64,000 bases of DNA from Octopus vulgaris. Taxonomy: Eukaryota. A program made the position numbers and the translations under genes. Shown piece after piece: positions 9,679-58,684 of this stretch (positions within the stretch are counted from its first letter, which is position 1; each line of letters begins with the position of its first letter). The stretch is from assembly GCA_951406725.2 (NCBI GenBank), contig OX597825.1, forward strand, positions 38,068,001 through 38,132,000, given 5' to 3'. Below the pieces are notes generated by a model. The model had not been told where the DNA came from and searched no databases. It saw only the letters and a program-made list of their open reading frames with translations.

Positions 9679-9892
9679 GACCACGTGTATATCGCTGGCG
9701 ATTTTTTTCCTCCGTCTTCCCTTCCTTGGATCTTTCCTTTTCCTATGTTTCTGACGAAGAACTCCGCTCGAAACTCTAAATCCACCTTCTTTCTTTCCTT
9801 TCCTAATTGTCCAATAACACTATACTTGTTCCACGCCCTCGCGATGTTGTGTTTTCTATTTTTGTTTTCATTGTTTGGATTAACTTTATATA
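9679..9892 (+). mobile_element. Penelope-type solo pLTR with a degenerate minimal hammerhead
   Basis: gtttCTGACGAagaactccgctcGAAAC at about 9747-9774. It is flanked by microsatellites, and homologues lie at 20985-21198 (-) and 30340-30556 (+). Confidence 0.7.
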
Positions 9893-9894
9893 TA

Positions 9895-10721
9895 TTAGAG
9901 GGAAAAGGACAACAAAATCCAAGCCAGGATGAATATCTCAAGTCATTTATAATAATTTAATTAGGATAAGTTTTAATTACGGCAGTTTCTGGGATATCCC
10001 TCTTGATAGGCTAGCATATCCGTACACTGAATATTCCGTCATCAGATACAAGGTGAGTATGTATGAAAGTTCTAGACAAGCAGATTCACAGATTAAAAGA
10101 AAGAAAACAGAAGAATAAAGACTAAATATAGATAGAACACAAACAGGAGAATAAAGTACACAGTTAATCTTTTACCTCAACTTTACCAAGACCTTAATGC
10201 CTAACTTTTCACCCCGAGCCGACACTTACGAACAGTAATACTGGCATCTTATTTCTATAGTTATTCTTTTAACTTTTATTTTATATTATTTTATTTTTAT
10301 TTTTTTGATTTTGATACTTGAGTTTAATTTACTGTCGTATCATTAAAAATACAGCCAAAATACTACTTGGATTTACCTGAGATTCTACCTAAGGGACTAT
10401 ACCTTCACGGAGTACGGACCGACGTCCTTACTCTCTGGAAAAAGATGTATTGTGAACTTTATTCTCCGGTCTGTGTTCTGTCTACTTTTAATTTTAATAC
10501 CTCTATTTTATTCCTTGTAATCTGTGAATTTCCCCGTCTAAAACTTTCATAATCACCTTGTCTCTGATGACGGAATACCTAGTGTACGGACATTCTAGCC
10601 TATCACTTGGGATATCCCAGAAACAGCTGTAAAATTTCAAATTCAACTTACCCTAATTAAATTATTATAAATGACTTGAGATACATGTCCTGCATTAGAT
10701 TTTGCTGTTCTTTTCCTCTAA
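9895..10721. mobile_element. Inverted pair of Penelope-type pLTRs (~280 bp arms), each with a hammerhead core
   Basis: 9895-10173 aligns with the reverse complement of 10440-10721. The right arm has CTGATGA (10564) and GAAACAGCTGTA (10620-10631); the left arm has the same on the minus strand. Both ends lie in TA. Confidence 0.8.
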
Positions 10722-13507: not shown

Positions 13508-15493
13508 CTAAAGTTGAGGTATATTAATTGTAGACCCGTTAAGAAGTGGCTTGTATTTTGTAATAAAGAGATTTTCTTTACTTATTCTTTGTCTCGAGGT
13601 TGTATCGTCCCTAAATTGGTAGAGGGGGAAAATTCTGAAGTTTGGTGTTTTTTTGTTGGCGCAAGTATCTATGTGTTGGCTAAAAGCTATTTTTCTGTTT
13701 TGGGGAATTTTTATCTGGGATCTGTGCAGGGCCATTCGTTTACGCAAACCATTTTTTGTTTGGCCTATGTACTGCTCTTGACACCCGGAGCAGGTTAGTG
13801 AGTATATTAGGTTCTCCGAAGCACATGTGAAGTTGCTTTTCACTGTAAACCGTTGTCCCTGTTTGAAGGAGAACTCCGAACCCTCGATTAGATAGTCGCA
13901 TATCCCGCAATTGGGTCTTCCACATTTTTTTACTGTCGGCTTCTGTGTTGAAGAGTGAATTCGGGCTTGTGTAAGGAGACTTTTCATGGATCTAGGCTGT
14001 CTTTTGCTTTTTATGATCGTGTGTGTTTGGAGGATTGTGTTCATTCTGTGGTCTTTTTTTAGGAGGGGTATGTTGTGGCGGATGGTGTCGAAGGCTTCGT
14101 TATTGAGAGGGTTGTGTGTGGAGATGTATGGTAAGGCTTTTGGTTGTAAGTTTTTCTTTGATTTGGGATGTCTCAGTTCCTTGATGTTAAGTTGAAGGGC
14201 ACGTTGAATGCACTTGTCAATAAGTGAAGGTGGATAGTTCCTGGTGATTAGGGTATCTTTTAGTTCTTGTAGTCGTGTGTCTCTGGTGTTTGCGTTAGAG
14301 ACTATAGTGCATATCCTTTTTGCTAGATTGAAGGGGATATTCATCCTGGTGTGTCTGGGGTGGCATGAATTGAATGGAAGATATTGCTTAGAGTCTGTAG
14401 GCTTATAGTATATGTCTGTTTCTATTATATTATTAGCTTTCTTAATGAGGATATCGAGGAAGGGGAGTTGTTGTTGGCTATATTCCATCGTGAATTGGAT
14501 GTTTACGTCCAGTCCGTTTAAAATTTTCTGGAATTCTATGAGTTTTTCTATATTTTTATGCCAAAGGATGAAACAGTCATCTAGATATCTCTTCCAGTTG
14601 TTTTCTATGTAGATGGAGAAAGGGCTGCCATATCTTTCTAGAACCTTACGATACAGACTGATCTCTAGGTATCCTATGACTAGGTTGGCAAAGGAGGGGG
14701 CCATTCGTGTACCCATCGCAGTCCCCGATTTTTGTCGGTAGAAGTTGTCATTGAAGGCGAAGAAGTTATTTTCCAGGATGAATTTAACCCCTTCTATCAC
14801 AAATTCTTTTTTGATGCGGTGTGGTAGTTCGTTGGCGTGATTCTCTAGCCAGAATTGGATTGCCTCTAGTCCTAGGTTGTGGGGGATATTGGAGTAGAGG
14901 TTGACTACATCGAAGGATACCAGTATGGTGTTTTTGTTTATAGTATTCGGTAGGTGATTGAGCATATCTAAGTCGTCCCTTATATAGCTTTTGACATGTT
15001 TGAGGAGTGGTTTTAACAGGGTGTCTAAAAAGTTACTGAGGCGGTGGGTTTCGCATGCGGGACCTGCTATTATGGGTCTCAATTTGAGGTCATTAGGATT
15101 AGGGACTTTAATTATTTTGTCTGTAGCTATCTTGCATGCGTTGCTTATTTTTTCACTTTTGTGGATCTTAGGTATACCGTAGAATTGGCTAGTTTTACTT
15201 GTGAAATTGGTCATATAATCATATTCTTTGTCGGTGAGCCCTGCTTTGTATGGGTTTAATATGGATTTTAGTTCCCTCATTATTTTTTGTTGACTGTAGT
15301 TTTGTGCCTTTTCATAGTATGTTGTGTCTTCCAGCATAGAAAGTACCAAAGTTATGTAAAATGTCGTATCCATTAAGACAACAGCACTCCCTTTATCGGC
15401 CTCTTTGATTGTTATTGTTTTATCTAGTTTTAATTTGTTCAACTCAGCCCATTCTTTTTTGCTGAAGTTTGGTTTGTGTTTTTGTTTGTGCAT
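13508..15493 (-). CDS. PLE reverse transcriptase + GIY-YIG endonuclease (661 aa, N-truncated, no internal stops)
   Basis: Motifs: IKEADKG, LRPII, VSFDVVNLYSNI, QKSGTAMG, RYLDD, LPFLD, YYKPTD, the Zn-linker KCGRPNCGIC, LIYSLTCSGCQEQYIGQTK and the C-terminal KYKPLLN. Confidence 0.95.
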   Translation of the reverse strand: MHKQKHKPNFSKKEWAELNKLKLDKTITIKEADKGSAVVLMDTTFYITLVLSMLEDTTYYEKAQNYSQQKIMRELKSILNPYKAGLTDKEYDYMTNFTSKTSQFYGIPKIHKSEKISNACKIATDKIIKVPNPNDLKLRPIIAGPACETHRLSNFLDTLLKPLLKHVKSYIRDDLDMLNHLPNTINKNTILVSFDVVNLYSNIPHNLGLEAIQFWLENHANELPHRIKKEFVIEGVKFILENNFFAFNDNFYRQKSGTAMGTRMAPSFANLVIGYLEISLYRKVLERYGSPFSIYIENNWKRYLDDCFILWHKNIEKLIEFQKILNGLDVNIQFTMEYSQQQLPFLDILIKKANNIIETDIYYKPTDSKQYLPFNSCHPRHTRMNIPFNLAKRICTIVSNANTRDTRLQELKDTLITRNYPPSLIDKCIQRALQLNIKELRHPKSKKNLQPKALPYISTHNPLNNEAFDTIRHNIPLLKKDHRMNTILQTHTIIKSKRQPRSMKSLLTQARIHSSTQKPTVKKCGRPNCGICDYLIEGSEFSFKQGQRFTVKSNFTCASENLIYSLTCSGCQEQYIGQTKNGLRKRMALHRSQIKIPQNRKIAFSQHIDTCANKKTPNFRIFPLYQFRDDTTSRQRISKENLFITKYKPLLNGSTINIPQL

Positions 15494-22571: not shown

Positions 22572-24581
22572 TCGTCCTTCGGGTTCGAAGATGACCACTG
22601 ACATCATCTGGTGGAACTGCCGCCATGAGACCGGAGGTGGCTGGTGAGGCCAATCCGGGCAAGGAAGCCCCTCCCACAGGTGGGGCAGAAGTGGGTAGGG
22701 GCCGTGCTACTGGTGCAGGCGGCTCTGGCTTTCCGCATCTGGCGTTTCTGCTCTGCTGACCGAATCCGTCCCTCCTCGGCTGTCCCTGCTCCTGTGGTGA
22801 TTGCGCTGCGCCAGGATGAGCGGTCGGCAGCAAGTGTCTGCCAGGTCTCTGTGCCGATTGAAAAGTCTTTGAGAGAGACCTTGAGACTGTCCTTGAAGCG
22901 CTTCTTCTGCCCTCCGACTTTGCGTTTGCCCTGGCTGAGTTCACCGTAGAAGAGCTGTTTTGGGATGCGAGTGTCGGACATGCGGGAGACGTGGCCCGCC
23001 CATCTCAGCTGGGCCTTGCGCATGATTGTAAGGGTGCTAGGGAGATCTGCCTGCTTCAGAACTTCTGTGTCTGGGACTTTGTCCTGCCAGCGGATGTGAA
23101 GGAGGTTCCGAAGACACCTGAGGTGGAAGTGGTTTATCTGGGGCTCGTGCCTTCGGTAAGCAGTCCACGTCTCGCAGCCGTATAGTAGGGTGGTAAGCAC
23201 GACTGCCCGGTAGACTTTCAGCTTGGTGTTGAGGCTGATTCCTCTCCGCTCCCAGACTTTCTTTCGCAGTCTCCCAAACGCGCTGCTTGCCTTGGAGATT
23301 CTGTTGATGGTTTCAGCATCTATGTTGGCATTGCAGGAGAGAGTGCTGCCCAGGTAGGTGAAGTTTTCCACCGCTCGTAGGATCCGTCCGTTCACCTTTA
23401 TCTGAATGGTATTGTTTGCCGGGGTCTGGCTGAAACATCACTTCGGTTTTCTTGGCACTGATGGTGAGACCGAAGTTGTCACAGGCTGATGAGAACCTGT
23501 CCATCTCGAGCTGCATCTCTTGCTCATCGATTGCATTAAGGGCGCAGTCATCAGCAAAGAGAAAGTCTCTGACGACTGTCTCTCTTACCTTTGTGACAGC
23601 CTGCAATCTTCTGGAGTTGAAAAGTTTCCCGTCTGTCCTGTACTTGATGTCGATACCGGACTTGCAGTCCCTAAAGGCGTCGGACAGCATTGCCGAGAAC
23701 ATGATGCTGAACAGTGTTGGGGCCAGGACACAGCCCTGCCTGACTCCGTTGGTCACCTGGAAGGCTTCAGATGAGTTGCCGTCTTCAAGGACTCTGGCTG
23801 TCATTCCGTCGTGGAACTGGCGGACAATTGCAATAAATTTGCTGGGGCAACCAAATTTTCCCATGACCTTCCATAGTCCCTCCCGACTGACTGTATCGAA
23901 AGCCTTGGTGAGGTCAACAAAGGTCATGCAGAGGTCATGGTGCTGCTCCTTGCATTTCTCCTGGAGCTGGTGGGCGGCGTATATCATGTCAGTGGTCCCT
24001 CGACCCGCGCGGAAGCCACACTGGCTCTCAGGGAGAAGGTCTTGCTCCAAGTGTTCCAGAAGGCGGTCAAGCAGGACCCGGGCCAGGATCTTGCCTGCTA
24101 TTGGACAAGAGGGAGATTCCTCGGTGGTTGTCACAGGACTGCCGATCTCCTTTCCGCTTATAAATGTGGACGATTGTTTCCTGTCCCACATCGAGTGGAA
24201 CAGGCTGGTGAGCTGATTGATCATGGTGGGGCCGCCCGACTTGAACACCTCTGCAGGGATGGCGTCAGAGCCTGGAGCTTTGCCTGTGGACATTTTTTTG
24301 ATGGCTCTGCTCACTTCCTCGACTGCAGGGGGAACAGCCAGCTCGTGGTTTGTCGGCACCTGGGGGGAGTCGTGCGATGGCTTCCTCGTTGATCTGGGCT
24401 GGTCGGTTGAGCACGATGTTGAAATGCTCCGCCCATCTCTCCAGGATCAGCTTCTTGTTAGTCAGGAGTGAGGTTCCATCCGAGCTGAGCAGGGGGGTTG
24501 ATCCAAAGGAGAACTGCGGTCCATAGACAGCTTTCAGCGCCTCGTAGAATTTCTTGGTGTCGTGTTTGTCTGCGTATCCCT
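22568..24581 (-). mobile_element. RTE-clade LINE, 5'-truncated, with a frameshifted RT
   Basis: Motifs: KAPGSDAIPAE, LPESQCGFR, FVDLTKAFD, GVRQGCVLAP, LFADD, FTYLGS, LLYGCETW, LRWAGHV and the C-terminal CPTCGR..H zinc finger. These are split over three frames and flanked by (TA)n. Confidence 0.95.
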
Positions 24582-27350: not shown

Positions 27351-27530
27351 ACATGCAGGTTAACCTGTTATCATGATTTCAAATTTAGCACCAAACGAGT
27401 AGATCTGGCTCAAGAGAATCGAGTGCTTGTATATTTGTGTGCGTGTACGCGCCCTTGTTTGTGTGTGTGCGTGTATGTGTGTGTGCCTACAAATTGATGT
27501 ATGTGTTCGTCTGAATATATATATATAAAA

Positions 27531-27609
27531 GTTTCTTGTCGAAGATACGTCTCGCTTTTATCCTTCGAAACGTAGAGTAGATGAAACCGTAGCGACTGAA
27601 GAAGGGGTT
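27531..27609 (+). ncRNA. Non-circularly permuted hammerhead ribozyme (family 1, copy 1)
   Basis: UACG-U-C|UCGCU ... auccuuc-GAAA-CGUA ... AGCGA-CUGAAGA-aggggu. Stems III and I are each perfect 5 bp, with a GUC site ending at 27551. Confidence 0.8.
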
Positions 27610-28320
27610 TTTTCTTTGTGTTAATTATCCTGTACTCTATTTTTTTGTTGTTTTTAAAAAAATGTTTGTGTCTATGTTTTCGTTTCTCATTGTGTTCGAC
27701 GTTCCTTTGGTGTCCTGTACTCATATATGCGTGTATACGTACATGTAGAGGTAGGTACGTACATATATGTTTATATATATGCATATGTTTTATTTCATTT
27801 ATTAATATATTATATGACGAAACGCACGCTCCCCCTTAAGTAAGATTGTTCTGTGTATCAAGTTTTGGTCTTGATATTAACTCTGACGCGGACTCTTCAC
27901 CTTTCTGTCCCATCCCTTGTCTCTTCCTCTCTCTCATTCTTCACTCTCTCTCTCTCTCCCTCACAATTCTTCATGGTTTCCTCGCAGCCATTCCCCTTCT
28001 TCTCTCCCTTTCTATTGCTCCTCCTCCCCCCTTCCTGTCGTTCACCCGCTCTGAATATCTTTCTGGCCTGGCCTTTCAAGGTAATGGACGACATTCTTCC
28101 TTCTCCTCTCGTCGTTCACAAAAAATTCTGCGTTCGCAATACTTGTTTTCGTTCGGCGTCAACAGCCCTTCTTATCTTGTTTTTCCCTGTCCTGTCTTTT
28201 ACTGTTTATATTTTGTACTGTCGTTACTGTCCTGTTTTTTTACCATTTTTTTTACCATTTTTTACCCCTCTGCGAAAAGATCTCAGAATTTTTATTGATT
28301 TGCTTTTCGCAGGAAGGAAA

Positions 28321-28399
28321 GTTTCTTGTCGAAGATACGTCTCGCTTTTATCCTTCGAAACGTAGAGTAGATGAAACCGTAGTGGCTGAAGAAGGGGTT
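28321..28399 (+). ncRNA. Non-circularly permuted hammerhead ribozyme (family 1, copy 2)
   Basis: Identical to copy 1 except for the stem I strand AGUGG, which still pairs with UCGCU through two G-U wobbles. The GUC site ends at 28341. Confidence 0.75.
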
Positions 28400-29137
28400 T
28401 TTTTCTTTGTGTTAATTGTCCTGTACTCTATTTTTTGTTGTTTTTTAAAAAATGTCCAGTTCCTTTGGTTTGTGTCTATGTTTTCGTTTCTCATTGTGTT
28501 CGACGTCCCTTTGGTGTCCTGTACTCATATATGCGTGTATATGTACATGTAGAGGTAGGTACGTACATATATGTTTATATATATGCATATGTTTTATTTC
28601 ATTTATTAATATATATATATATATATATATATTCAGACGCACATAAACAACAATTTGTACACACACAAATCGACAGGCGCACACACACATATACAAGTGC
28701 ACAAAAATATATGCATGAATGCATGAAAACCCATAAACGAAACATCTTGCATTATGTTTGTTTTGAGTATAATATAACCTCCTCTTAATTGAAGGTGCAA
28801 CGAAAGTATTTAGGTAGAATATATTAGAAAGATTTTGGGAGAACCTGAGATTTCACCTGGTGTTTATACATACCGTAATATAACCAACCTTACAGAAATC
28901 CACTGATATGATTATCCATTCATTCATCCATTCATATCTTTGTGTGTATGAATAAGTGTATGCAAACACACACTAACACACACACATACACACACACAAA
29001 CACACTCACTCACATATGTATATATATACACACACACATCAATAATTTTTATCATATTCTAAGCACTAAAGGAAAATGTTTATTCAGAACATATATAATC
29101 CTGTTGATATGAATCTATTGTAAAATTAGTATCAGAT

Positions 29138-56497: not shown

Positions 56498-56534
<37 letters not shown>

Positions 56535-57000
56535 AAAGTAAAAAAATATATACAAACTGGGACAAGAACGTGAAACACCTAGAAGACGACACAAGAAACA
56601 CAGGACGGGACATTCGAAGCCCTCAATCATCAGTCAAGAACCGGATCATCTTCGCAATTTCGGCTGATTAATCTTGAGATTGTTCCGATCTGGGCAGCCC
56701 CCAAGAGAAATCTAAGCCAAGCGCATTAGATCCCTTGGGAGAAAGCCTCGAATGTATACAACACAAGGACAGAAAACGGACGACGTACACGAATAAAAAT
56801 ACAAAAATACGTAAAAACAATAAAGAAAGCACGAATAAGAATACAAATACGTAAAAACAATAATGGTAAGGATAAAAACAAAACCAGGACGTCAGGACAA
56901 GTGTCTTTCGACAGGACGAGTTGAGTTTGGGGCTGGCTAGTGGAAGAGTGCCTTTAGGCCACGGGAGACAAACAAATACGTGTTGCTACAATGACTGCTG
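56535..57000 (-). mobile_element. Penelope-type pLTR (family 3) between TA tracts
   Basis: It carries a permuted hammerhead, a hairpin at 56701-56738 and an ~35 bp internal duplication (56789 and 56831). The PLE assignment is inferred from this architecture. Confidence 0.6.
56619..56693 (-). ncRNA. Non-circularly permuted hammerhead (family 3) with a kink-turn-like stem III extension
   Basis: CAA-U-C|UCAAGA ... ucagcc-GAAA-UUG ... UCUUGA-CUGAUGA-uugagggcu. Stem I is 6 bp and stem III 4 bp, with an AUC site. The stem II register is ambiguous. Confidence 0.7.
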
Positions 57001-57001
57001 G

Positions 57002-57035
<34 letters not shown>

Positions 57036-57036
<1 letters not shown>

Positions 57037-57449
57037 ACCTGAATAGGATAAGCTACCCCTATTTTGCAGAAAAAAAGTGTTGGTGTCCGGCTATGAGACT
57101 CGAACTCACACCTCCGTGATTAATTGTCGCGGTGAACTGAAGCAGTTAAACTATACAGCCAACACCAAAAATTATTCCGCAAATTTAAGATATATAGAAA
57201 TCTCGCTTTATGAGACGCTATCATACGTTAGATTCATATTACGATAAACGTAAACAAACAAACGAAGTTTGCTTTAGAAGCGATGAGATGTCTTAGAAAG
57301 TTAAAGAAGTGATTTTGAATTCTCAAATGCAGAATAATGCTAATAATATAGCCCGAACAGGATAAGCTACCCCTGTTTTACAGAAAAAAGTATTGCCGGC
57401 CGGCTTAGAGACTCGAAGTCACACCTCCGTGATTACACGTCGAGGTGCT
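57036..57449 (-). repeat. Partial tandem (~314 bp period) of a tRNA-like unit
   Basis: 57041-57135 and 57355-57449 align. The minus strand has an A-box-like TATAGTTTAACTG, B-box GTTCGAGTC, an anticodon-like arm and a T7 run. Confidence 0.65.
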
Positions 57450-57539: not shown

Positions 57540-57541
<2 letters not shown>

Positions 57542-58684
57542 CCGCAGAAGGAAGTACCGCAGAAATACCATCTGGTTTGCCCCCCCCCTACATTTCTTTT
57601 AACACAAAACGCCCGTTGGTAGAATATTCTTTTATTTAATATGTAAGAATTTCACTAGCTCCCATAGGTACTGGTCCATTTTCAACAGGAAAACGGTATC
57701 GTCTCATTTAGCTGTGTCCCCAATATCAAGAGCATCCTTGCACCGCCCCTCAACCACAGGAAGAGGCAGGATGTTCATGCAGGGATCGCAACAGATGCTC
57801 GGTGGGAAGCCACTGCGAAACCAAAGGGGTCGTCTATGAAGCTGAAGTACTAGCAAATCCCGGTAGTACCACCGGTAGAAGTAATTGCATGGCAGAGACG
57901 AGAACAGAACTAGCAACACCGCTACCATCGTCACATTTAACAATATTAGCGACAGTAGCAATAACACTACCAGCGGCAGCAGTGGCAGTTCCCCCGACCG
58001 CAACAACACTGACGACAGCAGCAGCAGCAACGCCGTCAGCACCAGCATTACCAAGGGCTTCCCTAACTTCTACAGTAGCAGACCTGACAACTCCTATAGC
58101 AGCAGAAACAGGACCAGTGCCACCGCCAGCTATAAACGCAATAACAATTCCACCAATGACTAGGACCACAATAACAACAACAGCACCTTCGCCATAACCG
58201 ACAGTAGCGATATCATTTCCGAGGCTAGCACCGACTCCAGCAGTGCCAACACTAATAGTCCCAGCTCCAACAACAACAATGTCGGCAGCAGCAGCAGCAG
58301 CAGTAACTATAACAACAACACCAGCAGGAACAGCAACGACAACACACGCCCACGGAGCTTCATTGGTTTTTAAGGGAACTCTTTCAAGCAACCTTTCTCC
58401 AACCGCAGATCCTTCTCAGAGTTCCGCGAAGGAGATACATGACATCACTAGCTACTCACGTCTAGTAACTAAGAGACCCTGGGATTCCATATTCGATCTC
58501 ATGGAAAATTCTCGACAACGCAGGCCCCTACATCAACAGACGAAGCGATTTAAGTTATGCATAGCTGAACGCGCGAGAACCCTAAAAGACTCACTCGAAC
58601 CAGCCTTCTCCATTTTTAATATATACTGCTCTGCATCTTAGAGTGTGCTTCTTCCTTCGGATTTTTGTATTTATGTTTTCAACT

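Follow-up and report, generated by a model that had tools for sequence, protein, structure and literature searches.

Hammerhead ribozymes in which the conserved blocks follow the non-circular order cleavage site, GAAA and CUGAnGA (hereafter abbreviated as S-G-C or type SGC) were first described in 2023 from metatranscriptomes, in a study that validated cleavage for this order as well as for the CSG order (Eckert et al., PMC10085705). The CSG order was then known from two sequences, and the same authors found none of these RNAs in genomes of known organisms; they assumed that at most 1-2 nt follow CUGAnGA and left the connection of stem III open, and neither 'kink' nor 'k-turn' occurs in their main text. 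We report here on a stretch of 64,000 nucleotides from Octopus vulgaris (contig OX597825.1, positions 38,068,001 to 38,132,000), hereafter called the window, the minus strand of which carries an S-G-C core inside a non-coding repeat, family A. Our reading, to which we give a probability of about 0.7, is that the modelled RNA would be a non-circularly permuted hammerhead that takes one strand of stem II from upstream, folds its stem III arm back by a kink-turn (k-turn) and cuts itself, likely providing unit-length RNA for Penelope-type copying.

Two other described systems bear on this comparison. The non-LTR (long terminal repeat) retrozymes of animals resemble family A in being non-coding, low-GC tandems with one hammerhead per unit and a link to Penelope-like elements, whereas they contain type I hammerheads in units of 170-400 nt and family A has a non-circularly permuted core in units of 690-860 bp (PMC7229834; bioRxiv 10.64898/2026.07.22.740005). 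Naiads, a widespread clade of animal Penelope-like retrotransposons, share with family A the targeting of (TA)n, the 5' truncation, the partial tandems and the inverted 5' pieces, and no canonical hammerhead was reported for them, only 'core' and eight 'half-core' cases (Craig et al. 2021, PMC8557442).

The RNA string quoted in the first-pass annotation of this DNA, which had claimed an intact hammerhead core in permuted order, matches the minus strand letter for letter from 56693 to 56627, and both the sequence and our S-G-C descriptor bear this claim out. CUGANGA, GAAA, A15.1-U16.1 and H17 are all present, in the 5' to 3' order of type SGC and not of type I. The descriptor has three matches in the window (56633 on the minus strand, 27596 and 28386 on the plus strand) versus 0.05 per shuffled window (60 shuffles), and when the upstream stem II is added it has two matches versus none in 200 shuffles. 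The pattern is well above chance and larger than previously described: the annotated span of 56619-56693 holds the core and misses the 5' half of the predicted fold, which occupies 56754-56611. The same annotation had counted this as a third permuted family; our descriptors show two permuted families in the window and give no support for a third. The 150 listed matches, out of 153, of an Rfam scan of the window include no hammerhead, an absence that is expected because the order is permuted; nearly all of them are microRNA hits driven by microsatellites.

The type-SGC ribozyme HRIMA-1 and its variants share with family A the S-G-C order, the short link between stems I and II and the question of how stem III can reach, whereas their CUGAnGA leads directly into stem II and that of family A is followed by an additional helix, P0, with stem II supplied from upstream (PMC10085705). 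In the predicted fold (table 1), the strand after A9 pairs with the far 5' flank to form P0, of 14 bp; the Pa hairpin separates P0 from GGCUG, which pairs with the CAGCC preceding GAAA. At least two further families in the genome have the same wiring with different sequences, and comparing families provides a stronger test of stem II than family A by itself. An exact partner of the five nucleotides before GAAA is found upstream in 97/126 copies of family A, 33/39 of family B, 16/33 of family N and 2/3 of family D, while after CUGANGA it is found in none of families A, B and N and in one copy of D (0, 0, 3 and 0, respectively, in a control window). The stem II sequences all differ among these families, being GGCUG/CAGCC in A, GAAGG/CCUUC in B, GACAC/GUGUC in N and GGCCC/GGGCC in D, and P0 and Pa are also discernible by eye in B, N and D. 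Through the upstream strand, G10.1-C11.1 is a G-C pair in 21 of 22 diverse family A copies, as stem II of a hammerhead demands.

Stem II had been drawn differently in the first-pass annotation, from the strand after A9, in two registers (a and b) that need a CC bulge or a 5-nt insertion, which would leave an ordinary type-SGC hammerhead. Register a is intact in 76/96 copies of subfamily A1, where a U>C variant after A9 suits it, and register b in 74/96 copies of A1 and 33/34 of A2. Against these figures, register a is intact in none of the 34 A2 copies, the core-proximal pair of register b is present in 11 of 22 copies, the strand of register b is occupied by P0 and its own pair probability is 0.00, and no such partner follows CUGANGA in families B or N. 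The two registers pair in 72.7% (a) and 78.4% (b) of cells versus 94.5% for the upstream register; we have abandoned both and consider an ordinary type-SGC hammerhead highly improbable.

The whole model of 48 pairs is paired in 88.2% of cells among the 22 diverse copies, with two-sided changes at 16 of its pairs; none of 500 shuffles reached as high and slid controls gave 26-48%, a result to be taken as support and not as a probability, since related sequences can beat shuffles. Stem I is paired in 92.4% of cells (4/6 pairs with two-sided change), stem III in 97.3% (2/5) and P0 in 82.3% (4/14). Because the stem II strand lies upstream, block C as defined by Eckert et al. is broken in two, and the chain both begins and terminates in the helix between A9 and G10.1. 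Judged from its sequence, the predicted ribozyme is a member of the non-circular hammerhead class that lacks one defining feature of type SGC, as its stem II strand does not directly follow CUGAnGA.

On the stem III arm, C-GAA-GA-U opposite G-GA fits the standard k-turn consensus, in agreement with the first-pass annotation. As in standard k-turns of the Kt-7 type, the family A motif has C-G at -1, a 3-nt bulge, G.A and A.G pairs and G at 3n, whereas it has U.G instead of A.G at 3b.3n and is predicted to lie in a ribozyme arm; the window copy differs further by a C.A mismatch at -1. This mismatch, already noticed beside the bulge, is located at 56683/56654 and is private to the window copy (G>A at 56683), the family having G in 99.6-100% of depth in four of four runs under four organism labels. 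To count the k-turn positions, which lie outside the core search pattern, we used the first 100 core matches on one sequence (C1), of which 99 were distinct and 98 remained after one with a 2-nt deletion was dropped. The bulge reads G58/U40 at L1, A98 at L2 and G45/A35/C18 at L3, and the bulged strand continues with G1b in 97 copies and A2b and U3b in all 98. In the 81 copies outside a subfamily named UAC, A1n and G2n are each present in 80, G3n in 78, the C-G pair at -1 in 75 and G at -1n in 77, so that the family consensus restores the pair beside the bulge. C-G and the tandem G.A pairs are all intact in 74 of the 98 copies, a standard k-turn at the family level; the conservation on which the original proposal depended thus stands for most family A copies and fails for UAC, where the non-bulged GA is lost. 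UAC is young, with 17 of the 98 sampled copies and 859 near-identical matches genome-wide. Subfamilies A2 and A3 differ in stem I and in the bulge, and A2 also in its non-canonical (NC) helix and in how long stem III is, yet on the bulged strand both keep N-A-N-G-A; L2, 1b, 2b and 1n are invariant in the 22 diverse copies versus 21 of the 117 other columns. K-turns with G at 3n fold in Mg2+ alone (PMC4382518, PMC8191799). Because the U.G at 3b.3n falls under this rule, L7Ae or 15.5K protein need not take part, and the family A k-turn is predicted by analogy to fold in Mg2+ alone.

The hammerhead fold has stems II and III stacked, with stem I beside stem II. In the proposed architecture, the chain would leave the core after A9 into P0, and the partner strand of P0 would run through Pa into G10.1, producing a five-way junction. 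Stems I and II and the arm of stem III would be tied together distally by short linkers in a second junction, closing a cage. The linkers measure 0-1 nt at stem II, 1 nt at the stem III arm and 4-5 nt at stem I. The stem III arm would have to turn back because these linkers tie the far ends of all three arms, and the turn would come from the k-turn, which lies 5 bp from the core. With idealised helices and rough geometry, the end of a straight 15-bp arm would lie about 62 A from its connection point; if a 50-degree kink placed 5 bp from the core is directed at stem I, the distances between the arm end and the ends of stems I and II shrink to 13 and 27 A, respectively, and for the same kink pointing away they are 43 and 27 A. 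The earlier suggestion that a k-turn folds the arm back for its 1-nt linker is supported by this geometry as a plausible inference.

The need for a bend would disappear if the same strands met in a head-to-tail dimer or between neighbouring tandem units, with the S and G blocks from one unit and CUGANGA and the upstream stem II strand from the other, the k-turn then being a protein handle or dispensable. Tandem arrays are common, some animal retrozyme hammerheads require dimers (PMC7229834), the family B arm of about 17 bp has a loop that is no obvious hinge, and UAC has lost the standard k-turn. Yet most arms examined have a bend-prone element 5-13 bp from the core, which is a k-turn in families A and N and a bulge of 4 nt in UAC, and which reads by eye as bulges or a three-way junction in the published Naiads; autonomous Naiad consensus sequences have a single copy at their 3' end. 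We regard the dimer as unlikely and retain the caged, self-contained hammerhead.

Several observations weigh against this caged hammerhead. Stem II is without two-sided change inside family A, its covariation being seen across families only. In the lowest-energy fold P0, Pa and stem II form and stems I and III and the NC helix do not, in a program that handles no pseudoknots. Part of the conservation on the non-bulged (1n) side of the k-turn is built in, as the A2 and A3 patterns fixed GGAG. UAC lacks the non-bulged GGA and has a stem III of 7 bp followed by a 4-nt bulge; the family B arm mostly contains a GAAG/AGUA loop, or else tandem G.A with a 2-3-nt bulge; the family D arm has an asymmetric loop; and one published Naiad arm appears by eye to be nearly straight (PMC8557442 supplement). 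No autonomous partner with family A sequence was seen in the loci examined. Finally, among tested hammerheads our search met none in which helices are inserted between A9 and G10.1. A viroid hammerhead is known with a 1-nt insertion at this place. No precedent for insertions between A9 and G10.1 appears in the portions of PMC3088659 and PMC2632901 covered here; PMC13725137 mentions variants with additional helices, giving no detail in the portion covered, and that of PMC10162972 contains none. Two ordinary minimal type I hammerheads, at window position 9751 (+) and near 2180 of a second locus (L027), have one extra A between A9 and G10.1, the position of the large insertion in families A, B, D and N. 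Because UAC loses the non-bulged GA and other families bend otherwise, the k-turn is one solution and no requirement; what the copies seem to retain is a bend rather than the k-turn as such.

The two core helices, lying outside tested hammerheads, also suit a fold that is real and barely or no longer catalytic, serving instead as a 3' recognition signal for the reverse transcriptase of a retrotransposon; insertions at that place do not exceed 1-2 nt in known alignments (PMC10085705), and the motif is always near the 3' end of the element. A mere recognition signal sits poorly with the fit of CUGANGA, GAAA and UH to the catalytic consensus in four families whose stems are unrelated, and with the finding that only N7 and H17 vary among subfamilies, even if the search patterns fixed much of the core. 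This alternative is in our judgement distinctly improbable, and we proceed with a self-cutting hammerhead.

The window copy is a decayed member of a high-copy non-coding repeat and forms a single truncated unit, full family A units being about 690-860 bp. The core-only pattern has 4312 exact matches in the 2.8 Gb Octopus genome, over which all pattern counts were made, versus none for the reversed control, and subfamily A2 has 641; in an initial survey, 40 of 3138 candidates were scored and were all 95-100% alike. Copies share a 3' end about 95 nt beyond the core, with a microsatellite after it in 52 of 55, and their 5' truncation points vary; in some, the final 68 bp are directly repeated or a 5' piece occurs in inverted orientation. 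Tandem arrays have periods of 769-855 bp in A1 and 691-720 bp in A2 (overlapping loci count some arrays twice), one locus (L185) having three units at a spacing of 843 bp. As in retrozymes, these are non-coding tandem units with one hammerhead each. No coding open reading frame (ORF) was seen in family A units, nor the ORF with N-terminal GIY-YIG and C-terminal reverse transcriptase that characterizes Naiads. A metagenome scan found the motif with its partner strands in 0 of 119 loci, and none of the listed records carrying family A sequence is registered as RNA; the four sequencing runs, available as contigs, showed no ends.

Family B has 3089 pattern matches with many covarying subfamilies, and a partial tandem of it, with a period of 790 bp, occupies 27528-28620 (+) of the window. 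A k-turn in the opposite orientation was considered for its arm and rejected, fitting one subfamily only; by eye, better pairing is obtained with the GAAG/AGUA register. A fourth family of this wiring, family D, was seen at three loci (L227, L242 and L250). More candidate permuted cores with other stems, for instance C5:41458926-41458982 and C3:117537121-117537177 (genome G000), suggest that the genome contains further permuted families. An inverted repeat pair in the window, at 9990-10045 (-) and 10564 (+), has CUGAUGA and no matching GAAA under our descriptors; it is perhaps the other permuted family of the first-pass annotation, in decayed form.

Family N is the 3' end of Naiads; its copies are old and decayed, and its short motif has 564 matches in the genome. 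Of 36 copies, 23 have their 5' side in register; in these, the k-turn lies 5 bp from the core and has G.A in 21/23, A.G in 19/23 and U.U at 3b.3n in 21/23, and Naiad reverse transcriptase remnants lie upstream in the sense orientation at one of 20 loci fetched (L381). The Naiad 3' end resembles family A in the wiring of its ribozyme and in the location of its k-turn, whereas no ORF is present in family A and its sequence does not match that of family N. The same wiring with k-turn can be read in the published consensus 3' ends of Naiad_Obim and Naiad_Ovul, and the five-way wiring can be read by eye in three near-identical Acropora Naiads, Naiad-2_Movir, a probable Clytia Naiad, two unnamed elements and, more weakly, Naiad_Esco, with arms containing bulges of 3-6 nt or a three-way junction (PMC8557442 supplement). 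Nematode Naiads in this supplement appear by eye to end in plain type-CSG hammerheads, the CSG order being readable in Naiad-1, -2 and -3_Nbra, Naiad_Hcon and one more. These readings, which span several phyla, cover part of the 54 Naiads, with names assigned by file order; the places viewed were 52/62 for CTGATGA, 29/43 for CTGAAGA, 15/23 for CTGACGA and 15/25 for CTGAGGA. The caged layout would likely explain why Naiads seemed to lack a hammerhead, and we think it fairly probable, from sequence comparison, that a caged hammerhead, its arm bent by a k-turn, bulge or junction, is the standard ribozyme of cnidarian-to-cephalopod Naiads and their non-coding parasites.

Regarding propagation, tandem transcripts cleaved at AUC^U would release RNA of unit length, and the monomers would circularise, as in non-LTR retrozymes, before reverse transcription into (TA)n; reverse transcription past the start would yield the terminal repeats and tandems observed. 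The tandem periods, inverted pairs and variable 5' truncation match a Penelope-like layout (PMC8557442). The window contains, at 13508-15493 (-), an intact Penelope-type ORF of 661 aa with reverse transcriptase, Cys linker and GIY-YIG, so that Penelope-type enzymes are likely at hand. From its motifs we take this ORF to be Neptune-like. The 3' untranslated region of its element has a degenerate ordinary type I hammerhead near 12830-12790 and ends in (TA)n.

In literature coverage that leaves most subscription journals outside, we found no report of permuted hammerheads in animal retroelements and none of a k-turn in a natural hammerhead arm. Non-circular permutations of RNA were known until now from a few hundred environmental sequences, and three patterns alone match about 8000 sites in the genome of a single animal (4312 + 641 + 3089), plus the 564 Naiad ends. 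Standard searches are blind to the caged layout because it breaks the assumption, made when all hammerhead layouts were enumerated, that CUGAnGA directly precedes stem II. The caged reading offers a testable answer to the missing Naiad ribozyme and bears on the need of Penelope-like elements for self-cleavage; if true, it would overturn the reported absence of hammerheads from Naiads, and hammerheads of the non-circular kind would be abundant among animal genomes. The subfamilies constitute a natural experiment on the benefit of a k-turn over a simple bulge, and proteins could exert control through a k-turn located in the arm of a ribozyme.

Table 1. Features of the family A copy and its predicted ribozyme, in window coordinates (invariance of GAAA among copies was fixed by the search patterns and is not independent)
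Feature	Position	Strand	Basis
5'-truncated copy of non-coding repeat family A, 473 bp	56531..57003	-	copy comparison
(TA)n tract at the fixed 3' end of the element	56501..56531		microsatellite <=190 nt from core in 52/55 copies
Whole predicted ribozyme domain, 144 nt	56611..56754	-	predicted fold and covariation
P0, 5' strand (closing helix inserted after A9)	56741..56754	-	mean pair probability 0.99
Pa hairpin, second helix between A9 and G10.1	56700..56739	-	predicted fold, covariation model
Stem II, 5' strand GGCUG, supplying G10.1 (outside earlier span)	56695..56699	-	pair probability 0.88
NC helix, 5' strand, with non-bulged k-turn strand (G3n G2n A1n)	56683..56693	-	copy comparison
Stem III, 3' side, with U16.1 and C17	56678..56682	-	sequence
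AUC at cleavage site; predicted cut 56678/56677	56680-56678	-	hammerhead consensus
Stem I, UCAAGA / UCUUGA	56677-56672 / 56639-56634	-	6/6 pairs; 4/6 two-sided changes among copies
Stem II, 3' strand CAGCC, ending in C11.1	56662..56666	-	predicted fold, copy comparison
Core GAAA (G12 A13 A14 A15.1)	56658..56661	-	sequence
Stem III (canonical or C helix of k-turn), bulge, G1b A2b U3b and NC helix 3' strand	56641..56657	-	
K-turn bulge GAA; G.A pairs	56653-56651; 56650-56649 opposite 56685-56684	-	
1-nt linker U (56640) and stem I strand into core	56634..56640	-	linker U in 98/98 copies
Core CUGANGA (CUGAUGA in window copy; N7 = U, A, G or C among copies)	56627..56633	-	
P0, 3' strand	56611..56624	-	predicted fold, copy comparison

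Just upstream of the element lie two 103 bp copies that are 83% alike (57032-57134 and 57346-57447) and absent from the other family A loci tested. Further on, a frameshifted Penelope-type thumb/GIY-YIG fragment at 57541-57850 (+) runs into a Pro/Thr/Ala-rich frame, and the long frame at 23315-24450 (+) has reverse transcriptase motifs of the LINE type on its minus strand.
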